From assembly GCA_049840735.1 (NCBI GenBank), contig JASGJN010000017.1:384001-448000 (forward strand): DNA of 64,000 bases, in the 5' to 3' direction. Positions 1 to 23,392 of the stretch are shown in pieces. Position numbers and translations under genes: made by a program. A model generated the notes under the pieces. That model made no database searches, was not told the origin of the DNA, and saw only the letters and a list, made by a program, of their open reading frames with translations. How positions within the stretch are numbered: position 1 is the first letter of the stretch; every line of letters begins with the position of its first letter. Origin of the DNA: Anaeromyxobacter sp. (lineage in GTDB: Bacteria > Myxococcota > Myxococcia > Myxococcales > Anaeromyxobacteraceae).

Positions 1-3000
1 GTCGTAGGTGGTGGAGGTCCCCTCGACGTTGACCTCGCTGCGCAGGTGACCGAGGCCATCCCAGTCGGCGGTGGAGGTCTGCACCTCCCCGCTGAAGCCG
101 GTCTTGAGGGTGGCCAGGCTGGTCGTGGCCGTGATGGTCACGTTGGCCGCCACGGCGCTGGCGTAGCGCGTGGTCTGCACCAGCTTGCCGTTCGCGTCGT
201 AGGCGAGCTCGGTCAGGTAGCGCTTGGGATCGACCTCGGCCACCTTCTGACCGCGCGCGTCGTAGTAGGTGAACGTGACCAGATCGTCCGTAGCGACGGA
301 CGCAGGGCGAAGGCCAGTCAGATCGCCCGTGGACCGGGCTGTGGCGACCTGGGCGGCGATGCTGGCCGCGTTGATGAAACCGGACACCTTGGTGGCGTAG
401 GCGGTCGACTGCACCTGGCGTCCGGAGGCGTCGTAGACGAACTCCGTCAGGTAGCCCTCGCCATCGATGGAGGCGCGCAGCAGCCCGTCCCGGTCCAGGA
501 TGCGGACCGCGGCGCGATCGGTGGCGTCCTGCACCACCTGCACCGCCATGGTGCCGGCGGTCACGGTCTCCACCAGAGCGCCCGAGACCGCAGTGGCGTT
601 GCTCGAGTCGCCCGCGTACACGGCGGAGAGGCTCTGCGAGCCGGTCGCCAGGGACACCTGGCTCACGGTCAGCGTGGCCACACCGCTCACCAGGCTGGCC
701 GTTCCGAGCACGGTCGTGCCGCTCAGGAAGGTCACCTTGCCGGTCGGCGAAGTCCCGGTCACGCTCGCGGTCAGCGTGAGCGCCTCGCCCTGGGCAACAG
801 ACGCCGCCGAGCGGCTGAGCGTCACCGACACCGGGGCAGCCATCACCTTGAGCACGGTGGTGGCCGAGGAGCTGCCCAGGTTGGTCGCATCGCCTCCGTA
901 CACAGCCTTGAGCGCATGGCCCATCGCCGACAGGTTGCTGACCGTGACCGACGCGACCCCGTTCACCAGGCTCGCGCTCGCGAACGGCGAGTTGCCATCC
1001 CAGAAGAGAATGGTGCCGGTGGCATCCGGGTTCGCGACCTGCGCAGTCAGGACCACCGGCGTTCCGACCGCCACCGAGCCGGCCGGCGAGACCGTGAGCT
1101 TGGTCTCAGGGCCGGCCTTGGTGACGTTGCGCGAGAAGGTGACCGCGCTGGCCGCGTTCTGCCCGTCGCCGGAGTAGGCGGCCGTGAAGGTGCCGGCACC
1201 CGTGGGCAGCGTCACGCCCGTCAGGCTGGCGATCCCGTCCACCACCTGCACCGTCCCAAGCACGGTCGAGCCCAGGAGGAACGTGACCGTGCCGGTGGGC
1301 TTGGTGCCCTGGACCTGGACCTCGAGCGGCCCGCAGCAGGAGACATCGCCCGTTGCCAGCGCAGTGACGCTGCTGGCCGGCCGCTCCATGAAGACGGTGA
1401 CCGCGCCGGACGCCGCCGACGCGTTATCCCGATCGTCAGCCTGGTAGGTGGCCGTGAGCGACAGGCTGCCCGCGCCGAGCTGCGTCGTGGTGAGCGTGGC
1501 CACTCCGTTGACCGTGTCCACCGTGCCGATCGCGTTGCCCCCGGCGTAGAAGGTCACCTTGCCGGTGGGGTTGACGGCGCCGGACACGCGCGCGGTCAGG
1601 GTGACCTGGGCGCCGACCAGCGCGTTCCGCGTCGAGGCGGTCAGCGTGGTCGTGGGGGTGGCGGCCTGCACGGTGACCGTCTTGGCGGCGGCCGCGCTGG
1701 TCTTGTTGGCCGTGTCTCCGGAGTAGACCGCCGTGATGGATTGCGTGCCCTTGGTGAGGGTCGAGACGGTCAGCACCGCCTGGCCGCTGACCAGGTCGGC
1801 GCTGCCGATGGCCACGCCGCCGGTAAAGAAGGTCACGGTGCCGGTGGGGGTGGTCCCGGCCACGGCGGCCGTCAGGGTCACGGGGTTGCCGGCCTGGACC
1901 GAGGTCGCGCTGACGGTCAGCGTGGTGGTGCTGGCCGGCAGGACCGCGTTGACCGTGACGGACACCTCGGCCGAGGTGCTCGAGGCGTTGACGGTGTTGC
2001 CCGCGTACTTGGCAGTCAGCTTGAACGTGCCCGCCGCGAGCGAGCTGGTGGTGAGCGTCGCCACGCCACCCGAGATGGTACCGGTCCCGATGGAGGCACC
2101 ATCCCGGTAGAACGTGACCGTTCCGGAGGGCTCGAACCCCGTCACCTGCGCGACCAGGGTCACGGAGGCCCCCTGGTCCAGCTTCAGCTTCGAGGCGCCC
2201 ACCTGCACGCGGGTCGGCGTCTTGAGTCCGGTGTCAAGCGCACCCGTGCTGCCAGCGCTGAGCTTGTCGCCCGAGTAGACCGCCAGGAGGTTGCCAAGGC
2301 CGGTGTTGGTGACGGCCAGCTCGGCCTTGCCGTTGATCACCTCGGCGGTGCCGATGAGCTGCATGTTGTCGAAGAAGCTGACCGTGCCGGTGACCACCCG
2401 GTCGGCATCGACCACGGTCAGCAGCGCGCCGGGAATCACCATGGCCGTCAGCTTCGAGGGGGCCCCCTCGACCCCGCCCGCCGTCAGCGTCACCTCGGTA
2501 CGAGTGACCCCAAGCGTAGGACCGGCCCCGGGAGCGGTGCCGCCGCTCACCGTTATGGTGGAGGTGGTCGAGAAGCTCCCGACGTTGCCCAGGTCACCGG
2601 CGTAGCTGGCCCGGACCGTGATCGGCCCGGTGTTCCCGAACTTGACCGCCAGGGTGGCGACCCCGTTCACGACCGCCGCCGTCCCCAGGACCGTGCTGCC
2701 GGTGAGGAAGGTCACCGTCCCCTGGGGCAACTTCCCCGCCACGCGCGCTGTGAGCGTCACGCTGGCGCCCATGGACGCCGTGGCCGGCGCGGTGAGGGTG
2801 GTGGCCGAGATCACCGGCAGGTCGGACTTGCTGGCCGCGTTGCCGGTGTCCCCCAGGTACTCCGCCCAGAGGCTGCTCGTGCCAGCGTCGGTGGTGAAGC
2901 CGTCCGCACCCACCACCGCGCTGGCCGATGGCGTGAGCGAGCCGACGGTCAGCGTGGCCACGCCGCCGTTCAGCGTACCCGTGCCAATCTGGGTGCTCCC

Positions 3001-6000
3001 GTTCCAGAAGCGGACCGTCCCGCTGGGCGCGAGGATCCCCGCTCCCGTCACCCGGGCGGTGAGCCGCAGGGGGAGCGCCGCCGTGCTGGTGGTCGCAGCG
3101 GAGGTGAGCACCAGGCTGGTCGGCGCGGGCTTCACCGTGCCCTCGAGCTTGCCGATCGAGGCCGCGTCCTCGGCGCTCCCGCCGTAGACCGCCGTGATGG
3201 TCCCATCGCTCGCGGTCAGCTCCGTGGCAAGCGTGGCCTTGCCGTAGGACAGCGCGGCAGTCCCGATCACCCGCGTGCCGGACAGGAACGTGACGGTCCC
3301 GACCGGCTCGAAATTCTCCCGTCCGCTCACCGTCGCGGTGAGCAGCACGTTCGCGCCGACCACCATTCCCGCTGGAGGCGTGGAGCTCGTCACCACCAGC
3401 GACGTAGCGTGCGGCGCCACGGTGGTCACCTGGGTGACCTCACAGGCCTTGTTCTTCGTGTCGCCGGCGTAGGACGCCTTGAGGGTGACCGCTCCGGCCG
3501 GCAAGGCGGAGGTGACCAGGGTCGCCTGGCCGTTCACGACCGATGCGGTCCCGAGCGAGATGGCCCCAGCGTAGAACGTGACCACACCGCTCGCGTTCAC
3601 CCCGGCGACCGAAGCCGTGAGGGTTGCCTCCTCGCTGAACACCAGACTGGAGATCGTCAGGCTGGCGGTGGTCGTGACCTGCTGCACGGTGACCGACGCG
3701 GTTCCCGCGCTCGAGGTCGTGCTGGTGTCGCCGGAGAAGACAGCGCGCAGCGAGGCGGCTCCCACCGGAAGTGACTTCACCACCAGGGCGGCGGTGGAGC
3801 CGCTCAGCGTGACACTTCCAAGGAGGGTCGAGCCGTTGAAGAAGCTAACGGTCCCCGTGGGCGATCCACCGGTCACCGTGGCGGTGAGTGTCACCGGGGT
3901 CCCGAAGGCCGGCGTGCTGCTGGACACGGACAGGCCGGTCGTGGTGGTGGTGCGCGCCGCCGAGACCGTCACGGCCGCGACGGTGGAGGTGGAGGGCCCG
4001 TTGTTCGAGTCGCCCCCGTAGGTCGCCTTGATCGAGTGGCTGCCCGCCGCCAGGGAGGCGGTGGTGAAGGTGGCCAGCCCGTTGACGATGGTGCCGGTCC
4101 CGAGGGCCGTCGCTCCGTCGTAGAAGGTCACCGTCCCGCCGGGCGTTGCGCCAGTGACCTGGGCCACGAAGGTGGCCGAGCCCGCCGGGATGGTCGCGCC
4201 CGGAATGAAGAGCGTCGTCGCGGTCGCAGCTGTCGTCACGGTCTCCGTGACGGCGGCTGAGGTGCTGTATGCCGCCGAGGCGTCGCCGGAGTAGACCGCC
4301 GTGATGGCGTTGGCTCCCACCGGCAGGTCCGAAAGCGTGAGCGAGGCCTTGTTGCCGGTCCCGACAGTTGCGCTGCCGAGCAGCGTGGTGCCCTTGAAGA
4401 AGGAGACCGTCCCAGTCCGGGTCGTGCCCGATCCGCCCGAGACCGTACCGGTGAGCACGACCGCTGTCCCGCGGGCGGTGGTCGCGCTGGAGAACGTCAG
4501 GACGGTGGTGCTGGCGGCAAGCGAGGAGGTCGGCCAGCTGGTGTTTCCCGGGCCGGGTGAGGTGGCAGAGGCCGCGCTGGAGACGCTGGTGGCGTTGTTC
4601 GCGTCACCTGCGTAGACCGCCGTGTAGGAGACGGCGGTGCCGACGGGGGGGTACACCACCAGCGAGGCGCGCCCACCGCTCACCGTTGCGGTACCGAGCG
4701 CACGCAACCCGGCAAAGAAGGTCACCAGGCCGGTCGGGGAGCTGCCGGTGATGGTTGCCGTGAGCGTGACGTTGTTGGTGTAGGGTCCTCCCGCAACCGC
4801 CGTGAGAGCCGTCGTGGTGGTCCGCGAGATGGTGGGCGTGACGATGTTGGAGGTCGCCTGGGCGTTGTTGGTGTCGCCCAGGTACTTGGCGGTGATTCGC
4901 GGAGCCCCCACCGCGAGCGACGTGACCGTCAGGGCCGCCACCCCGTCCACCACGTCCACTTGCGCGAGCTCGGTGGCGCCCGAGTAGAACGCCACCTTGC
5001 CCGTGGCCAGCGTCGCGCCCGTGGCCTGCGCCAGCTTGGCCGTGAAGGTGATGGCCGAGCCCTGCGCCGCCGCCGTGGCCGAAGACGATAGCGTGACCGT
5101 CACCGGCGCGGTGGTCACCGTCCTGTTGAGCGCCGTGCTGGTGGCGCTCGTGGCGCAGTTGGTGCTGCCGGTGTAGGTGGCCGACAGGGCGTTGCTGCCG
5201 CCAGGCAGGCTCGAGACGGTCAGCGTGGCCAGGCCGTTGCTGATGGTCGCCCGGCCCAGCACCGTGGTGCCGGTGAAGAAGGTCACGGTGCCGGTCGGCA
5301 CCACACCGTTCGTGCCCACCACGGTTGCCGTCAGCGTCACCGAGTTGCCGTGGATGATGCTGGCTGGGGCGCTGAGGGTGGTGGTGGTCGGCGCCGTGGC
5401 CACCGTCTCCGCCACCACGGCCGACGTGCTGGTGGCGTTCCGGGTGTCGCCGACATAGGTCGCCTTGAGGCTGGCGGTGCCCACCGTGAGGTTGGTCACG
5501 CTGAGCGTGGCCACGCCGCCGGTCAGCGTCGCCGTCCCCAGCAGCGTGCCGCCGCTGTAGAACGAGACCGTGCCGGCCGGGTTGTTTACGCCGCTCACGG
5601 TCGCGGTCAGGGTCCGGGCGGCACCGAGGCCGTCGGCGGCGCGGGTCACGGCCAGAACGGTGGTGCTGGTGGCGGGAGAGACCGTGGTCGAGGCGGCGGC
5701 CGAGATCGCGCCGGTGTTGACGCTGTCACCGGAGTAAACCGCCGTGAGGCTAGCGGTCCCGGAGGCAAGGTCATCGGTGATGAAGGTGGCCACGCCGCCC
5801 GTCACCGCCGCGCTGCCAAGCAGCGTGCTGTCGCGGAAGAAGCTGACCGTGCCGCTGGCCGTGCTGGAGCTGATGGTCGCCGTGAGGGTCACCGGCGCGC
5901 CCGCCACCACCGAGCCGGAGGAGACCGCCAGCGTGGCCGTCACCGCCGTCAGCTGGGTCACGTCGATCAGCGCCGAGGTGCTGGCCTGGTTCGACCCGTC

Positions 6001-9000
6001 ACCCTGGTAGACGGCCTTGACGGTCGACACGCCGGCAGGGAGACCGCTGGCCACGTAGCTGGCCACACCGTTCACCACCGCCACCGTCGCCAGCTCCACC
6101 GAGCCCCGGAAGAACTTGACCGTGCTCCCGGGGTTCGCCCCGGCCACGATGGCCGTGAGCGTCACGCTCCCGCCTGGCGCGATCCGGGCCGTCGAGACGC
6201 GCAGCTCGGTGGTGGTGTTGGGGGCCGCGTCTACCGTGGCCGCCACCACTGCCGAGGCGCTCCCGGCGTAGGCGCTGTCGCCGCCGTAGACGGCGGTGAG
6301 CTGCTGGCTGCCCACCGGCAGGCTGGTCACGGTCAGCGTGGCCACGCCGTTCACGACCTCGGCCGCGCCCACGCAGGTCTGGCCGGCGAAGAAGCTGATG
6401 GTCCCGGTCGCGCCCAGGTTCGGAAGCCCATCGGCCCCCAGCACGGTGGCCGTCAGCAGGCGGGTTGCGTACTGCCCGGTGCTGCCGGAGACCATCTCGA
6501 GCCGCGTGGACGTCGCCGTCCCGGCCAGCGTCAGCGTGACCCCGATGCCGTTGCCGAGCTTGGACGTATCGACCGGGGTGGCAAGCTTCGTGACCGAGAG
6601 CACCCGGGAGGCGCCATCGTACTGCGTCTGCGTCACGTACCCCAGGCCATCCACCTGCCAGGCCAGGCGACCGGCCGCGTCGTAGAAGCTCCAGGACTTG
6701 ACGTCCTGGGCGCCCGCCGCCACATCCGGGAGCGCCATGATGCTCTCGGGCGAGAGCCGCGCGATGGCGTCCCACGCCGTCCCGATGGCGGACGGCATGG
6801 TCGAGATCTCATACGTGCTGTCCGCGACGTTGGCGTACTGGAAGTAGCCACCGGCCGTCCGGAGCTGCTCAACCTCGCCCAGGTATTTGAGCCAGTTCGC
6901 CTTGTCCCCGAGTTTGTAGAACGCGACCGCTGCCCCGAGCGTGCCCTCCGACCACACGGTGCTTGCGGCCCCCGGATACTCGTCCTGAGCCGAGTAGGGC
7001 ATGAAGCCCTCGACCCCGTTGACGGTCGTTCCATAGACCGCGACCGCACGCTGGAGGGAGCTCCTGGCCTCGGCCATCCGGCCAGTGGCAGCGAGGAAGT
7101 AGGCCCCCCACGTCAGGCAGTCCAGCGCGCTTCCCGTGTCCACGGTGCTGGCGTCGGCGAGCCCCTGGTAGAAGTAGCCGCCCGCCACATTGAAGTGCGA
7201 CCGCATCAGGTTCTTGTCGATGCCTTCTGCCGCCCGCGCGTAGCGGTCGTCCTTGAACACCTCATAGGCCCACCGGAGCGCGAAGAACGCGTCGATGTTG
7301 TGCTCGGTGGACGCCCAGGGGAGCACGTAGCCGGCGTCCAGCTCGCCGTTCACGTACCGCCCTCGGCCGGCCGTGATGCTACCGGCCTGGATCCCGGTCG
7401 TCGCCTGCTGGGTCAGCAGGTAGTCCGCCGCCTTCTGCGCCGCGACACGCACGGCCTCAGGCGCAGCCGAGCCGCGGAGCGCCAGATACCGGGTCAGGGA
7501 ATAGAGACACCAGGCGACGGAGCCGTTCCGGACGTAGGCGTCCCCCTCCCCGGACAGCATGTTCACCGAGAACGGGAACGAGCCGTCGGCGAGCTGCGTC
7601 CCCACCAGCCCCATCACGGCACGGTCCAGCGCCGCGCCCTCCTTTGCTTCCACGAGGGCGCAGATGTAGACCGCCTGATCGTAGGTGTAGGTCCGGTTAC
7701 GGAGGCTCCCGTAGGCAGGATCCGTCGTGGCGACCTCGTAGGAGCGGATCCTCCCCGTGTTCTCGGAGTAGATGGCCTTCGTCGCGCCCGTGGACGTATC
7801 GATGAGCCGGACGAGCTTGACTCCGGCGTGCAGCGGAACCGTGAAGTCGACACGGCCATCGGCCGCGATCGCCAGCTCCTGCTGGACGTACTCGATGTCT
7901 GCCACCAGGACGTACTGGAGCTTCAGGTTCTGATAGTAGCCGCCTGAGACCTGGTACTTGGACGGGAGTCCGGAAACCTGGACGCTGGGCACCGCATTCT
8001 GGCCGTCGTTGAGGACGGTCAGGATCTCGCCTTCGTTCAGGTAGTTTTCGGAGAGCGCCGGCAGGTAGTTGGACCGCGCTGCCAGCGCCGCGAGATCGGC
8101 CTGCACCTTGGCGGCCTCGACGCCGTCGAGCGCCGGCCGTTCGGGGGCGGCGCTCGGGCGGAGGGCGTCCAGCGTGACGGCAGAAGCCGAGGCGCCTGGA
8201 TTCCCGTTGAACGCGATGGTCGGATTGCCCGACGAGTCGACCAGCCGGGCCGTGTCGACCGGGTTTGCGTACCGGATCTGCTGGGTGACCCGGTTGCTGG
8301 CGTCATGGATGTACTCGGTGAGCCCGCCGGCGGGGTCGATGTCCGCCACCTTGCGACCGGCCGCATCGTAGAGGACCCATGACCGCTGACCGGTGGGGTC
8401 CTGCGTCATCACCAGCCGATCGTCCCGGTCGTAGAAGTAGCGCGTGGTCCCTAGCTCGGTCCCTGCGTTGGACTGGACCACGCTCACCAGCCGGCCAGCG
8501 GCGTCATACGTGGACAGCGTGACGAGGCCATTCGCCAGGGTCGTCGTGGTGCGGTTCGCGGCGTCGTCGTAGAGCGTGGCGCTCTGGTTCGCGACCCCGA
8601 ACTCGCTCGACAGCTCCAGCTTGCCGATCAGCCGGCCGAAGCCGTCGTACCAGCAGTCCACCTCGGCCTTGGTGTCGGCCGAGACCGTCTTCACCAGCCG
8701 GCCGCGCTCGTCGTACACGAAGACCGTGGTCGCGCCCGAACCCACGCCCACGCCGGCTGCGTCCACGGCGGTGTAGCTGGTCTGCGCGCTGAGCTGGCCG
8801 CGCAGATCGAAGGCGTAGTCGGTCCGGACCGTCTGGGTCCGATCCGCTGCGGCCGTCCACGCGACCAGGTCGCTCTCGGCCGCGCTGCCGCTGTAGGTCC
8901 CCGCGCGATACTCGATGGAAGCGACGCGCTGCCCGTTCGCGTCGTAGCGCTGCTCGGTCACCCTCCCCTCCGCCGAGATGACGAAGCGGAGCTGGTTCTT

Positions 9001-10273
9001 CCCGAGCGCGTCGTAGACGTAGCGGGTGGTGAGCGGGTCCGTGCTGCTGGCGCCCGAGTAGATGGTCTCGGACAGCAGCTGGTTCTGGGCGTCGTAGGTG
9101 CGGACCAGGCGGTTCCCGGCGCTGTCCACCTGCTCGGTCAGGTTGCCCTTCACGAACGTGGTGGTGACCGTCCGGCCCATGCCGTCGGTGGCAGTCTGGA
9201 CGTCCTGGGTGGCGTCGTAGCTGTAGTCGACCCGCGTCTTGCCAGCGGCAGACTGGATCGACTTGAAGTTCCCGGCCGCGTCGTAGTCGCAGACCGTGAC
9301 CAGTCCCAGCGCGTCGGTGACCGCCGTCCGCTTCGCCGCCGTGTCGTAGGCGAAGGTGGTGACCTGGTCGAGCGCGTCGGTCACCTTGCTGACGCGGTAG
9401 CTGCCGTCGACCAGCGTGTACTCGAAGGAGAGCGAGGTCCCGTCGGACTGCGTGATCTTCGCGACCCGCGTGCTGGTCCCGTCGTAGGTGTAGGTCGTGG
9501 TGTAGGTGGACTGCGCCAGCCCCGCCGCCACCTGCGCGTCGTTCTTCGGGTTGAGCTTGACGCTCACCGTGCTCAGCCGGTTCTGCGCGTCGTAGGTGTA
9601 GCTGACGTCCACCACCGTCAGCGCCCCACCGATTCGACAGGACGGTGCTCACGCTGGTGAGCGTGCTTCCCGAGTAGGTGTAGGTGATGGACTCGCCGCT
9701 CGAGCTGAGGATCTCGGTGAGCAGCCCGTTCGTGTAGTTGAACGCGAGCGTGTTCCCGGCCGTGTCGACGGCCGAACGGATCCGCCCGAAGGTCCCGGCG
9801 TCGTAGTTCTCGCGCGCGCCCGTCGCGCCGTCGGTCCACGTGTAGGTGCCGTCGCCGTTGAGGACGATGACGTCCTGCGCCGAACCGTAGGTCGCCAGCG
9901 CCACGTAGCGATTGGGGTCGCCGGTGCCGACGTTGGAGTAGTCGACGAACGAGCCGTCGTAGTCGTACCGGCGCAGCGTCCCGCCGCCCAGGTCCTGGAT
10001 GGCCCGCGTCTGCGTGCCCTGCCAGTTGTCGCCGTTGCCGTCGAAGTCGTAGCCGCCCTGGCTGTTGTAGGTGCGGATGGTCGAGCCATCCGGCCCGCGG
10101 CCCGCCAGGACCGAGTCCACGTCCTGCAGCACCAGGTTGCCGGTCGCGATGTTGACGTACGCCCGCTCGCCGCTGCGGCCCTGGGTCGCCGAGCCGAGCA
10201 CCCCGCGACCGCCGAGGTTGGTGAGCGAGCTGAGGTTCAGGCCCAGCGAGTTCCCACTGAAGATCGCGACCAT
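1..10273 (-). CDS. Giant YD/RHS-repeat protein (>3,400 aa, 3' end outside window) with DUF6531-like N-terminus, inserted glycosidase-like helical domain and 21 Ig-like repeats; one +1 frameshift at ~9633, probably a sequencing error
   Basis: ATG at 10273 gives MVAIFSGNSLGL...VNIATGNLVLQDVD...RTYNS (RHS N-terminal motif). Removing one base in GATTC at 9631-9635 gives ...VLSIGGALTVVDVSYTYDAQNRL. Spot translation stays in this frame to base 1, with many YD repeats (YDAAGRL, YDARGQK, YDANGKL). Confidence 0.9.
555..6520 (-). repeat. 21 tandem bacterial Ig-like (Big_3_5-type) domains, ~90-105 aa each, inside the giant protein
   Basis: Recurrent G-T-V-x-F-x-x-G...LG...V..G.A.L....L..G...TAxYxGD pattern. 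YxGD-type motifs counted near 6290, 6005, 5735, 5455, 5175, 4885, 4615, 4290, 4020, 3735, 3470, 3185, 2860, 2600, 2275, 2005, 1725, 1445, 1175, 900 and 618. Confidence 0.85.
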
Positions 10274-17934: not shown

Positions 17935-18819
17935 TCACCGCAGGAGCTGCTGCAGCGCCTTGCGCACCGTGCGGGCGACCGTGGCGGGCACCGGCGCCTC
18001 GCCGGCCGTGCGGCAGAGCTTGAGCGTGGAGCGCAGGCTGTCGCAGCGGCGCTGGCAGGCCTGGCAGCCTTTGAGGTGCTCCTCCAGCTCGGCGCACAGG
18101 CTGGGCGCGATCTCTCCCTCCAGCCGGCGGGAGAACGCCTCCACCACGTCGCGGCAGCCCGCATCCGTTCGCGGTTCGACAGGCTCACCGCGAACGGTGT
18201 CGACGGGACCAGCCCGGGCGGGGACCAGCTCGGGCAGCCCGGCCTCGAGCACCGGGGCCATCCGCTCCCGGACCGCCACCCGGGCGCGGTGCAGGCGGCT
18301 CTTCACCGCCTCCACGGTGAGGCCCAGGATCTCCGCCACCTCGGGCGCGGTCAGCCCCTCCACGTCCCGGAGCACCAGCACCTCCCGGTACATCGGCTCG
18401 AGCGAGCCGATGGCATCGTCCAGCGCCGTCTCCAGGCGGCGGCCCTCGAGGTGCTCGTCTGGGCCGCGGGCGGGATCGGCGAGCTCGAGCGCTGCGCGGG
18501 CCGGCTCGCCCTGATCCAGCGACTCCACCACCTCCGGCGCGAACCTGGACCGGCGCCGGTGCTTGATGCAGAAGCTGCGGGCGATGGTGAAGAGCCAGGT
18601 GGAAATCGACGAGGCGCCGCGGAACTCGGGGAGGCTGCGGGCCGCGGCCAGCAGCGTCTCCTGGAGCACGTCCTTCGCGTCCTCCTCCGCGCGGCACATC
18701 TTCATGCCGAACCGGAACACCCGGGCCTGGTGGCGCACCAGCAGCCGCTCCAGCGCCTGGCGATCGCCGCCACGGGCAGCCTCCACGAGCTGGTCGTCGC
18801 TCTCCATGGCCAGCGTCAT
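17935..18819 (-). CDS. ECF sigma-70 factor with fused C-terminal zf-HC2 (ZAS-type) zinc finger
   Basis: DAKDVLQETLL...STWLFTIAR (sigma2); REVLVLRDVEGLTAPEVAEILGLTVEAVKSRLHRAR (sigma4); C-terminal C...HLKGCQAC. Confidence 0.9.
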   Translation of the reverse strand: MTLAMESDDQLVEAARGGDRQALERLLVRHQARVFRFGMKMCRAEEDAKDVLQETLLAAARSLPEFRGASSISTWLFTIARSFCIKHRRRSRFAPEVVESLDQGEPARAALELADPARGPDEHLEGRRLETALDDAIGSLEPMYREVLVLRDVEGLTAPEVAEILGLTVEAVKSRLHRARVAVRERMAPVLEAGLPELVPARAGPVDTVRGEPVEPRTDAGCRDVVEAFSRRLEGEIAPSLCAELEEHLKGCQACQRRCDSLRSTLKLCRTAGEAPVPATVARTVRKALQQLLR

Positions 18820-18846
18820 ACCCGAGGGTCGGCCGGGGCTCAATCG

Positions 18847-19293: not shown

Positions 19294-19327
19294 CCGTTCG
19301 CGGTTCGACAGGCTCACCGCGAACGGT
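19294..19327. repeat. REP-like palindrome, identical to the copy at 18165-18198
   Basis: CCGTTCGCGGTTCGACAGGCTCACCGCGAACGGT. Confidence 0.8.
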
Positions 19328-19369
19328 CTTCTTCGCCGCGAACGGTCCCGCCTCGGAGCGCCGCGGCCT

Positions 19370-21518
<2,149 letters not shown>

Positions 21519-21775
21519 CCGTCCTCCAGCCACCCCGCGGGCAAGCGTAATGGAGACTCCCTTCGGGACGGAGGAATTTCGCCTGCCTCCGGCGTCGCGC
21601 CTTCATGGTGCTCGCCCGGTATCCGGGCAACACCCTGCACGCGTGCACGGCCCGACCCGCCCCGCGCCTACCCCCGCAAGGCCACCCCGCGTGCCCGCGG
21701 CGGGGCTGCGCGAGCACGCGCACCCTGGTATCTCTTCGGTCCACGGGCAGGCACCTGGCAGCGGCGGAGGCCTCG

Positions 21776-23392
21776 ATGCAGCAGCTCGACTACCTGATCA
21801 TCGGCTCCGGCTTCGGCGGCAGCGTCAGCGCGCTCCGGCTGGTGGAGAAGGGCTACCGGGTCGCGATGCTGGAGAAGGGCCGGCGCTGGGCGCCGGAGGA
21901 CTTCCCCCGTTCCAACTGGAACCTGCGGCGCTGGCTCTGGATGCCGGCGCTCGGGTTCCACGGCATCTTCAAGATGACCTTCCTCCGCCACCTCACCGCG
22001 CTCTCCGGCGTGGGCGTGGGCGGCGGCTCGCTCGTCTACGCCAACACCCTCCCCACGCCCAAGGACGCCTTCTTCCAGGCGCCCACCTGGCGCGAGCTGG
22101 CCGACTGGAAGCGCGAGCTCGCGCCGCACTACGAGACCGCGCTGCGCATGCTGGGCGCGACCCAGAACCCGCACCTCGGCCCGGCGGACGAGGTGATCCG
22201 CGCCATCGGGCGGGACCTGGGACGCGAGGACGGCTTCCAGCCGGTCCGGGTGGCGGTCTACTTCGGCCAGCCGGGCGTGACCGCGAAGGACCCGTACTTC
22301 GGCGGCGAGGGGCCGGACCGGATCGGCTGCACGCTCTGTGGTGGGTGCATGGTGGGCTGCCGCCCGGGCGGCAAGAACACGCTCGACAAGAACTACCTCT
22401 GGCTGGCCGAGCGGCGCGGCCTGCGCATCGAGGCCGACACCGAGGTGACCTGGGTGCGGCCGCTCCCCGGCGGCGGCTACGAGCTCGAGGCCAGGCAGGG
22501 GCGCTCGCGCCTCTTGCGCAAGAGGGTCCGCTTCACCGCGCGCCAGGTGATCTTCTCCGGCGGCGTGCTCGGCACCGTGCCGCTGCTGCTCAAGGTGCGC
22601 GCCAGCCCCAACGGCCTGCCGCTCCTCTCGCGGCGCCTGGGCGAGCGGGTCCGGACCAACTCGGAGGCGCTCATCGGCGTCACCACCCTGCGCAAGGACC
22701 TCGACCTGTCGAAGGGGCTGGCCATCACCAGCATCCTCCACACCGACGAGCACTCCCACCTCGAGCCGGTGCGCTACCCGGCCGGCTCGGGCTTCTTCCG
22801 GCCGCTGATCGCGCCGCTGGTGGCGGGCGAGAGCGCGCCCATCCGCGTGCTCCGGACCTTCATCACGTTCCTGCGCCACCCCTTCCGGCAGCTGCGCATC
22901 CGGCTGGTGCCGGACTTCGCCCGCGCCACCACCATCCTGCTCTACATGCGCACGCTGGAGGGGACGCTGCGGCTTCGCCGCGCCGCCGGCGGCCGCCTCA
23001 CCACCTCGCTGGCGGGTGGGCCGGCGCCCTCCGCGTCGATGCCCGAGGCCTTCGACCTGGCGCGGCGGGTGGAGGAGAAGATCGACGGCGTGGCCGGCAC
23101 GCTGGCCACCGAGACGCTGCTGGGGACGCCGACCACCGCGCACATCCTGGGCGGCGCCTGCATGGGCAGGAGCGCCGAGGATGGGGTCATCGACCACCGC
23201 CATCGGGTCTTCGGCTACGAGGGGCTCTACGTGGTGGACGGCTCGGCGGTCTCCGCCAACCCGGGCGTCAATCCCTCGCTCACCATCACCGCGCTGGCCG
23301 AGCGGGCCATGAGCTTCATCCCGCCCGCCACCGAGGCGGCCGCGAAGGCGCCCGCCAGCCACGCCGTGCTGCAGGCGGTGCCGGCCAGCTGA
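21776..23392 (+). CDS. GMC oxidoreductase, cholesterol oxidase-like
   Basis: IIGSGFGGSVSALRL, GVGGGSLVYA, CTLCGGCMVGC, KNTLDKNYL, TAHILGG, NPGVNPSLTITALAERA. Confidence 0.88.
   Translation: MQQLDYLIIGSGFGGSVSALRLVEKGYRVAMLEKGRRWAPEDFPRSNWNLRRWLWMPALGFHGIFKMTFLRHLTALSGVGVGGGSLVYANTLPTPKDAFFQAPTWRELADWKRELAPHYETALRMLGATQNPHLGPADEVIRAIGRDLGREDGFQPVRVAVYFGQPGVTAKDPYFGGEGPDRIGCTLCGGCMVGCRPGGKNTLDKNYLWLAERRGLRIEADTEVTWVRPLPGGGYELEARQGRSRLLRKRVRFTARQVIFSGGVLGTVPLLLKVRASPNGLPLLSRRLGERVRTNSEALIGVTTLRKDLDLSKGLAITSILHTDEHSHLEPVRYPAGSGFFRPLIAPLVAGESAPIRVLRTFITFLRHPFRQLRIRLVPDFARATTILLYMRTLEGTLRLRRAAGGRLTTSLAGGPAPSASMPEAFDLARRVEEKIDGVAGTLATETLLGTPTTAHILGGACMGRSAEDGVIDHRHRVFGYEGLYVVDGSAVSANPGVNPSLTITALAERAMSFIPPATEAAAKAPASHAVLQAVPAS

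Follow-up and report, generated by a model that had tools for sequence, protein, structure and literature searches.

Canonical RHS/Tc toxins combine YD repeats with DUF6531 and a variable C-terminal extension, and in RHS proteins this extension is preceded by a DPxG(L) autoproteolysis motif. Domains can also be inserted within the repeats themselves. In mosquito SGS1, as described in PMC9935623, domains that include a carbohydrate-binding module (CBM) and a lectin lie within the YD repeats and on the shell exterior, and the principle of exterior inserts is therefore not new. Here we analyze a 64,000-nt stretch of Anaeromyxobacter sp. DNA (GCA_049840735.1, contig JASGJN010000017.1, 384,001-448,000; hereafter the window), in which a giant minus-strand gene shares the YD repeats, DUF6531 and the variable C-terminal extension with canonical toxins and carries a 477-amino-acid, enzyme-like module within its YD repeats. 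With a probability of roughly 0.55, and relying on a predicted structural model, we favor the reading that this insert is an outward-facing, depolymerase-like barrel on the YD shell that would cut bacterial surface polysaccharide. Exterior passengers as such were already known; an enzyme-like passenger in a YD-shell loop was not found in the literature searched.

The insert is enclosed by minus-strand open reading frame (ORF) 9615..1 with the reading frame kept throughout, and RHS repeats flank it on both sides (PF05593, E 2.9e-38). A first-pass annotation, made from the sequence alone, had described a non-repeat module within the YD repeats, and this module is real. The span it gave (6720..8135) is one base out of frame, the real span being 8142-6712, and its remark that the module is absent from the ORF track holds only if that listing omits ORFs running off the window. 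Five of its six quoted motifs read as written; the sixth, given as AYVRNGSVAWCVY, really reads AYVRNGSVAWCLY (WCLY, not WCVY). The insert measures 478 rather than 477 amino acids when aligned to an empty homologue. Residue numbers count along P0002 (8136-6718), and conservation was scored over 155 homologues, each denominator being the rows with a residue at that position. The module and its parts are as follows.

6712..8142, minus strand: inserted module, 477 amino acids, in frame, from after RPSAAP to before AQDVKSW
8077..8124, minus strand: predicted helix 1 of the barrel, residues 5-20 (predicted model, DSSP)
7765..8025, minus strand: predicted all-beta subdomain between helices 1 and 2, residues 38-124, with conserved [TA]DxxY
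6754..7686, minus strand: predicted helices 2-12 of the (alpha/alpha)6 barrel, residues 151-461 (model and structural alignments)
7678..7683, minus strand: Y152-D153 at the start of helix 2, likely sugar-binding Asp (152/152, 150/152)
7300..7305, minus strand: E278-H279 at the helix 5-6 junction, likely general acid (154/155, 151/155)
7120..7122, minus strand: D339 at the start of helix 8 (153/155)
6946..6948, minus strand: E397 at the start of helix 10, likely base or nucleophile (151/152)

The predicted model is a six-hairpin (alpha/alpha)6 barrel, and structural alignments cover model residues 1..472, which supports the fold proposed at first pass. The glutamates singled out there, in STEHN and WSEGT, are near-invariant (154/155 and 151/152 homologues). 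Both glutamates appear from the DSSP string to cap inner helices. Other residues are also kept (R203 in 138/153, D282 in 150/155, W395 in 150/152 and W455 in 147/149), and by the same string the conserved residues cap helices 2, 4, 6, 8, 10 and 12. The inner helices line the pocket in (alpha/alpha)6 folds, and the predicted helix positions would place the conserved carboxylates there. The ends of helix 1 and helix 12 appear in the model to be adjacent, on the face opposite the pocket, and such an arrangement would explain ready insertion into unrelated scaffolds.

Structural relatives of the model lie in glycoside hydrolase family 15 (GH15), at 12-15% identity: dextran dextrinase 9JU0, isomaltose glucohydrolase 5Z3A, glucoamylase 1LF6 and glucodextranase 1ULV. 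The likeness resides in the predicted (alpha/alpha)6 barrel. As described in PMC12446779, GH15 enzymes hold the acid in the helix 5-6 loop and the base in the helix 11-12 loop. By helix count E278 occupies the general-acid position, whereas the invariant second glutamate, E397, stands at helix 10; the helix 11-12 loop of the module does contain E443, but this position is Glu in only 80/150. Unlike GH15, the insert has a beta subdomain after helix 1. A Pfam scan of the insert returned no family at E 0.1, GH15 included, and profile A1 gave 8 matches to solved chains at E 10, none of them a GH15 chain. The endo-mannosidase MmpH (7QSJ) is 17% identical to the module. According to PMC9883506, loss of Glu262 abolishes MmpH activity, and Asp47 or Asp50 is the proposed acid, in contrast to the invariant E278 of the insert's family. 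We compared the equivalents of Trp49/Asp50 and Glu262 through a weak hidden Markov model (HMM) alignment (E 0.11), which brings E397 within one residue of Glu262. On the available evidence, the module is predicted to work like a clan-L-type glycosidase, although by sequence it is no GH15 member. Alpha/alpha toroids are rare in phages, making up 11 of the 984 annotated phage depolymerases in PMC11326577.

Other enzyme classes were considered. The module lacks the DXDD motif carried by squalene-hopene and other class II terpene cyclases. An enzyme that is no simple hydrolase (a transglycosylase, phosphorylase, lyase or sugar epimerase) is improbable. AGE and cellobiose 2-epimerases have at least two catalytic histidines on inner helices, whereas H279 is the only conserved histidine in the module family, and fusion to tail tips suits depolymerization better than monosaccharide chemistry.

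The module family comprises 658 representatives at E ≤0.001 and has no Pfam or NCBIfam model. Its nearest relatives are in phage tails, a connection that was missing from the first-pass annotation, as were the polysaccharide-synthase operons of stand-alone members described below. C-terminal heads of tail fibres in PHROG 7032 and 13714 match residues 80-459 (E 1.6e-38 and 7e-38), and 16/50,697 phage records match the module, including a lambdoid side-fibre gene and Microbacterium minor tail genes. The closest relative (55% amino acid identity; 66.7% nucleotide identity over 842 bp) is the C-terminal extension of the baseplate wedge protein gp46 (L036:5488-7422) in an intact Mu-like tail operon. 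The insert ends where the phage protein ends (ALPDVAAG versus SLPVAG-stop). Identity at codon positions 1/2/3 is 68/71/44%, which argues for an old split with the protein under selection. A Mu-like baseplate wedge is an unusual place for a phage enzyme. In P0040, P0044 and P0121 the module interrupts T7-like nozzle or tail proteins, at one of two positions, and the host protein continues beyond it; in P0045, P0073 and P0076 it is N-terminal to other RHS proteins. On several small viral contigs (L037-L043, L046, L056 and L060), the barrel and a PhoD-like phosphatase form a single protein of about 1,250-1,460 amino acids. In a midpoint-rooted FastTree phylogeny built from 148 barrels over 330 columns, with 5 rows skipped, the insert clusters with P0011 and the phage protein (support 0.998), within a branch that is rich in tail fusions and also holds a bacterial member (support 0.85). 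Judged from these sequences, a phage tail gene is the likely donor of the insert.

Because the assembly is rich in indels and no second copy of the fusion was found, one might suspect that a phage read was wrongly assembled into an RHS gene. We consider this very unlikely, since the reading frame is preserved across both junctions, nothing is lost or duplicated in the flanks relative to the paralogues, the insert begins just ahead of helix 1 and stops where the phage protein stops, and the Mu-like tail genes give no match in the genome at E 1e-6.

The carrier totals about 6,600 amino acids, starting at 10273 and ending near C17:374450, beyond the window. It contains 6 YD motifs before the barrel and 41 after, and is organized around the insert as follows.

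9616..10273, minus strand: carrier N-terminus, about 217 amino acids (MVAIFSGN...), in another frame than ORF 9615..1; weak DUF6531 match
8143..9615, minus strand: YD/RHS repeats ahead of the insert (sequence and Pfam scan)
6541..6711, minus strand: single YD repeat unit separating the barrel insert and the immunoglobulin (Ig) array
520..6540, minus strand: Ig-like (Big_3_5) array, 2,007 amino acids, 21 Big_3_5 stretches, in the long loop of the next repeat unit
1..519, minus strand: YD repeats restart before the gene leaves the window; LysM-like and variable C-terminal regions follow

As the first-pass annotation had claimed, the Ig array occupies the equivalent long loop, one repeat unit on from the barrel. 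Long loops recur in the sequence after each four-strand unit of the carrier, and neighboring loops should therefore share one sheet edge. PMC13018210 gives the cavity size of a bacterial teneurin-like shell, and 21 Ig domains cannot fit in such a space, which argues that the Ig loop is outside. Together with the termini opposing the pocket, these considerations point to an outward-facing barrel. The module could instead be cargo that the shell encloses and sets free at its target, as with a C-terminal RHS toxin, given that about 3,000 amino acids of YD repeats may enclose a larger cavity than solved shells. This too is highly improbable: the module is attached at either end, no cleavage site is evident, the matching loop of the next unit is taken up by the Ig domains, and the solved inserts described in PMC9935623 are exterior.

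Similar loops take up passengers in homologues. A region search identified 191 giant homologues, and we compared the best 120 of these, the carrier included, with the first 3,600 amino acids of the insert-free protein P0170, counting insertions of ≥150 amino acids; such pairwise alignments may misplace inserts in divergent members. Insertions were found in 97/120 homologues, with 25 in the Ig loop, 61 near reference position 2,700, and four, the carrier's own among them, in or beside the barrel loop. The hot spot near position 2,700 (P0159-P0277) accepts up to 2,300 amino acids of mostly unannotated content, although the cluster may partly reflect a deletion in P0170. The barrel occurs in 0/119 of the other compared homologues. 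In 10/119 of them, a Pfam scan placed enzyme domains (e.g. muramidase, nucleases) at the C-terminus only, and internal inserts were Ig, FG-GAP, RTX and DUF4214 domains, none catalytic. Thus, the loops of giant DUF6531-YD-LysM proteins accept passengers up to about 2,800 amino acids, and the earlier idea of plug-in sites is backed by these inserts.

These passengers also raise the alternative that the barrel binds glycan without cutting it, as a lectin-like adhesin. P0224 carries three CBM5/12 modules in exactly the barrel loop, the internal inserts scanned are non-catalytic, and the inserts of SGS1 are receptor domains (PMC9935623). Binding alone nevertheless seems unlikely to us, because four near-invariant carboxylates, an arginine and a histidine are kept at the inner helices, probably more than binding usually needs.

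Four same-genome paralogues (C17:346.8k, C11, C13 and C19) cross the insertion site as LRPA-x3-5-D-x-K-x-W, and all four also lack the Ig array. The gene region is present in 3/91 other genomes of the family, each giving one contiguous match across the site. In one genome (G015), the Ig array is present with the same start as here and the preceding loop is empty. The simplest order of events is therefore that the Ig array came first and the barrel later, the alternative being loss in G015. A search of 36 same-genus genomes of mixed completeness did not recover the insert, and no second fusion of barrel and RHS loop was seen among 37 metagenome and 10 viral loci (ORF inspected for 38/39 new loci). 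The fusion is thus known as one copy in one noisy assembly.

The source genome holds at least six giant YD genes or fragments (C17, C13, C11, C19, C4 and C22), and a giant YD gene occurs in only 3/36 same-genus genomes. The neighboring paralogue (G000:C17:348672-339148) has a short stalk, VTLALAP-TAGTVQV, exactly at the Ig array position, as if the array had been lost, and the C4 copy (C4:235304) is 96.9% identical to it over 446 amino acids. Between the two C17 copies lie an orphan C-terminal RHS fragment (C17:357127-354170) and insertion sequence (IS)-like ORFs.

The insert might also be a tolerated idle passenger, or part of a decaying gene. It is a singleton, IS-like ORFs and the orphan fragment lie downstream, and the carrier has two frame breaks, near 9630 and, outside the window, near C17:378150, with 5,243 codons between them. 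However, rpoB, rpoC, dnaE and secA are likewise split between frames in this assembly, so the two carrier breaks are probably sequencing noise, and the one near 9630 is probably an assembly error. The insert has no stop codon, no invariant residue is lost across its 477 amino acids, and its third-position GC (0.89) is near that of the flanks (0.91-0.94). We regard idleness or decay as quite improbable. A second, fragmented rpoB-rpoC locus lies on a separate contig (G000:C23), a possible contamination or duplication.

Stand-alone members of the family offer a hint to substrate. We counted neighbors at the best 80 of 304 confirmed genome loci, which span several phyla and include close kin. A GT2 glycosyltransferase with QxxRW was present in the fetched flank at 23 loci, ≤600 bp away in 15; a PIG-L deacetylase was near the barrel gene at 15 loci, and 13 loci had both. 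By comparison, a QxxRW GT2 occurs in 94/20,000 random 17-kb windows of the source genome. In three same-order genomes, the barrel gene is flanked by a TPR gene and a HEAT gene and encodes a lipoprotein-like N-terminus, with a GT2 following in both genomes checked further. The GT2s best match PgaC_IcaA, below cut-off, and the TPR protein weakly matches YaiO. A widespread operon (L032, L033, L061-L131) comprises a PgaC-like GT2, a HEAT protein, a PIG-L deacetylase, a TPR/YaiO barrel and the module barrel; at 12 other loci a conserved 600-amino-acid gene directly follows the barrel (e.g. L101:9134-10930). These neighbors suggest an N-acetylglucosamine (GlcNAc)-rich polymer as substrate. Synthase-dependent exopolysaccharide operons typically hold hydrolases such as BcsZ, PgaB and PelA, and this setting also speaks against a role in binding only. 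Weighing against this substrate, the insert's own branch is not the GT2-adjacent branch.

We propose that a loop of a giant YD-repeat protein received a phage-tail-type module as an in-frame graft. The barrel would hang outside the shell with its pocket facing away, using E278 as acid and E397 as base or nucleophile on a surface polysaccharide of other bacterial cells, likely GlcNAc-rich, and cutting this coat would let the carrier reach or stick to its target. The carrier itself is most likely an exported adhesin-toxin. For comparison with the DPxG(L) autoproteolysis motif, its sequence after LysM, judged by eye, is PYDQSRIVGSTTP, the family consensus being PYDPSxxxGDxTP. The C-terminal extension near C17:374450, after LysM and a glycine/alanine-rich hydrophobic segment, is a possible toxin domain. 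Should the barrel prove active on the shell exterior, RHS proteins would bear phage-tail-derived enzymes on their surface as well as hidden cargo at the C-terminus. The analysis turns an unnamed, widespread family into a glycosidase candidate with named putative catalytic residues and a candidate substrate. More tentatively, the module could found a glycoside hydrolase family of its own, pairing a GH15-type acid with an MmpH-type base. On this view, it would first have served to process a widespread GT2/YaiO GlcNAc polymer; phages would have captured it repeatedly for plug-in depolymerization at the fibre tip, baseplate wedge or nozzle loop, and a bacterial RHS protein would then have acquired it from a phage tail, yielding a toxin shell with a capsule-cutting enzyme outside.

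Upstream in the window are genes for an ECF sigma factor with a zinc-finger anti-sigma domain, an isoamylase-like GH13 protein and a GMC oxidoreductase (17935-18843, 19314-21533 and 21605-23392), with no link to the insert shown.

Among known systems, stand-alone members resemble BcsZ/PgaB/PelA-type operon enzymes in having lipoprotein-like signals beside GT2, deacetylase and TPR/YaiO barrel genes, but belong to a different sequence family. The PHROG 7032 and 13714 heads are homologous and share the same motifs; they tip phage fibres, in contrast to the graft in a bacterial RHS loop seen here, and their label denotes fibre and no activity. SGS1 likewise has domains inserted in its YD repeats and displayed on the shell exterior, but those described in PMC9935623 are eukaryotic and non-catalytic, with no toroid and none phage-related. 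Finally, canonical RHS/Tc toxins carry their cargo at the C-terminus, whereas here an enzyme-like domain is internal and tethered at both ends, within a protein of about 6,600 amino acids.
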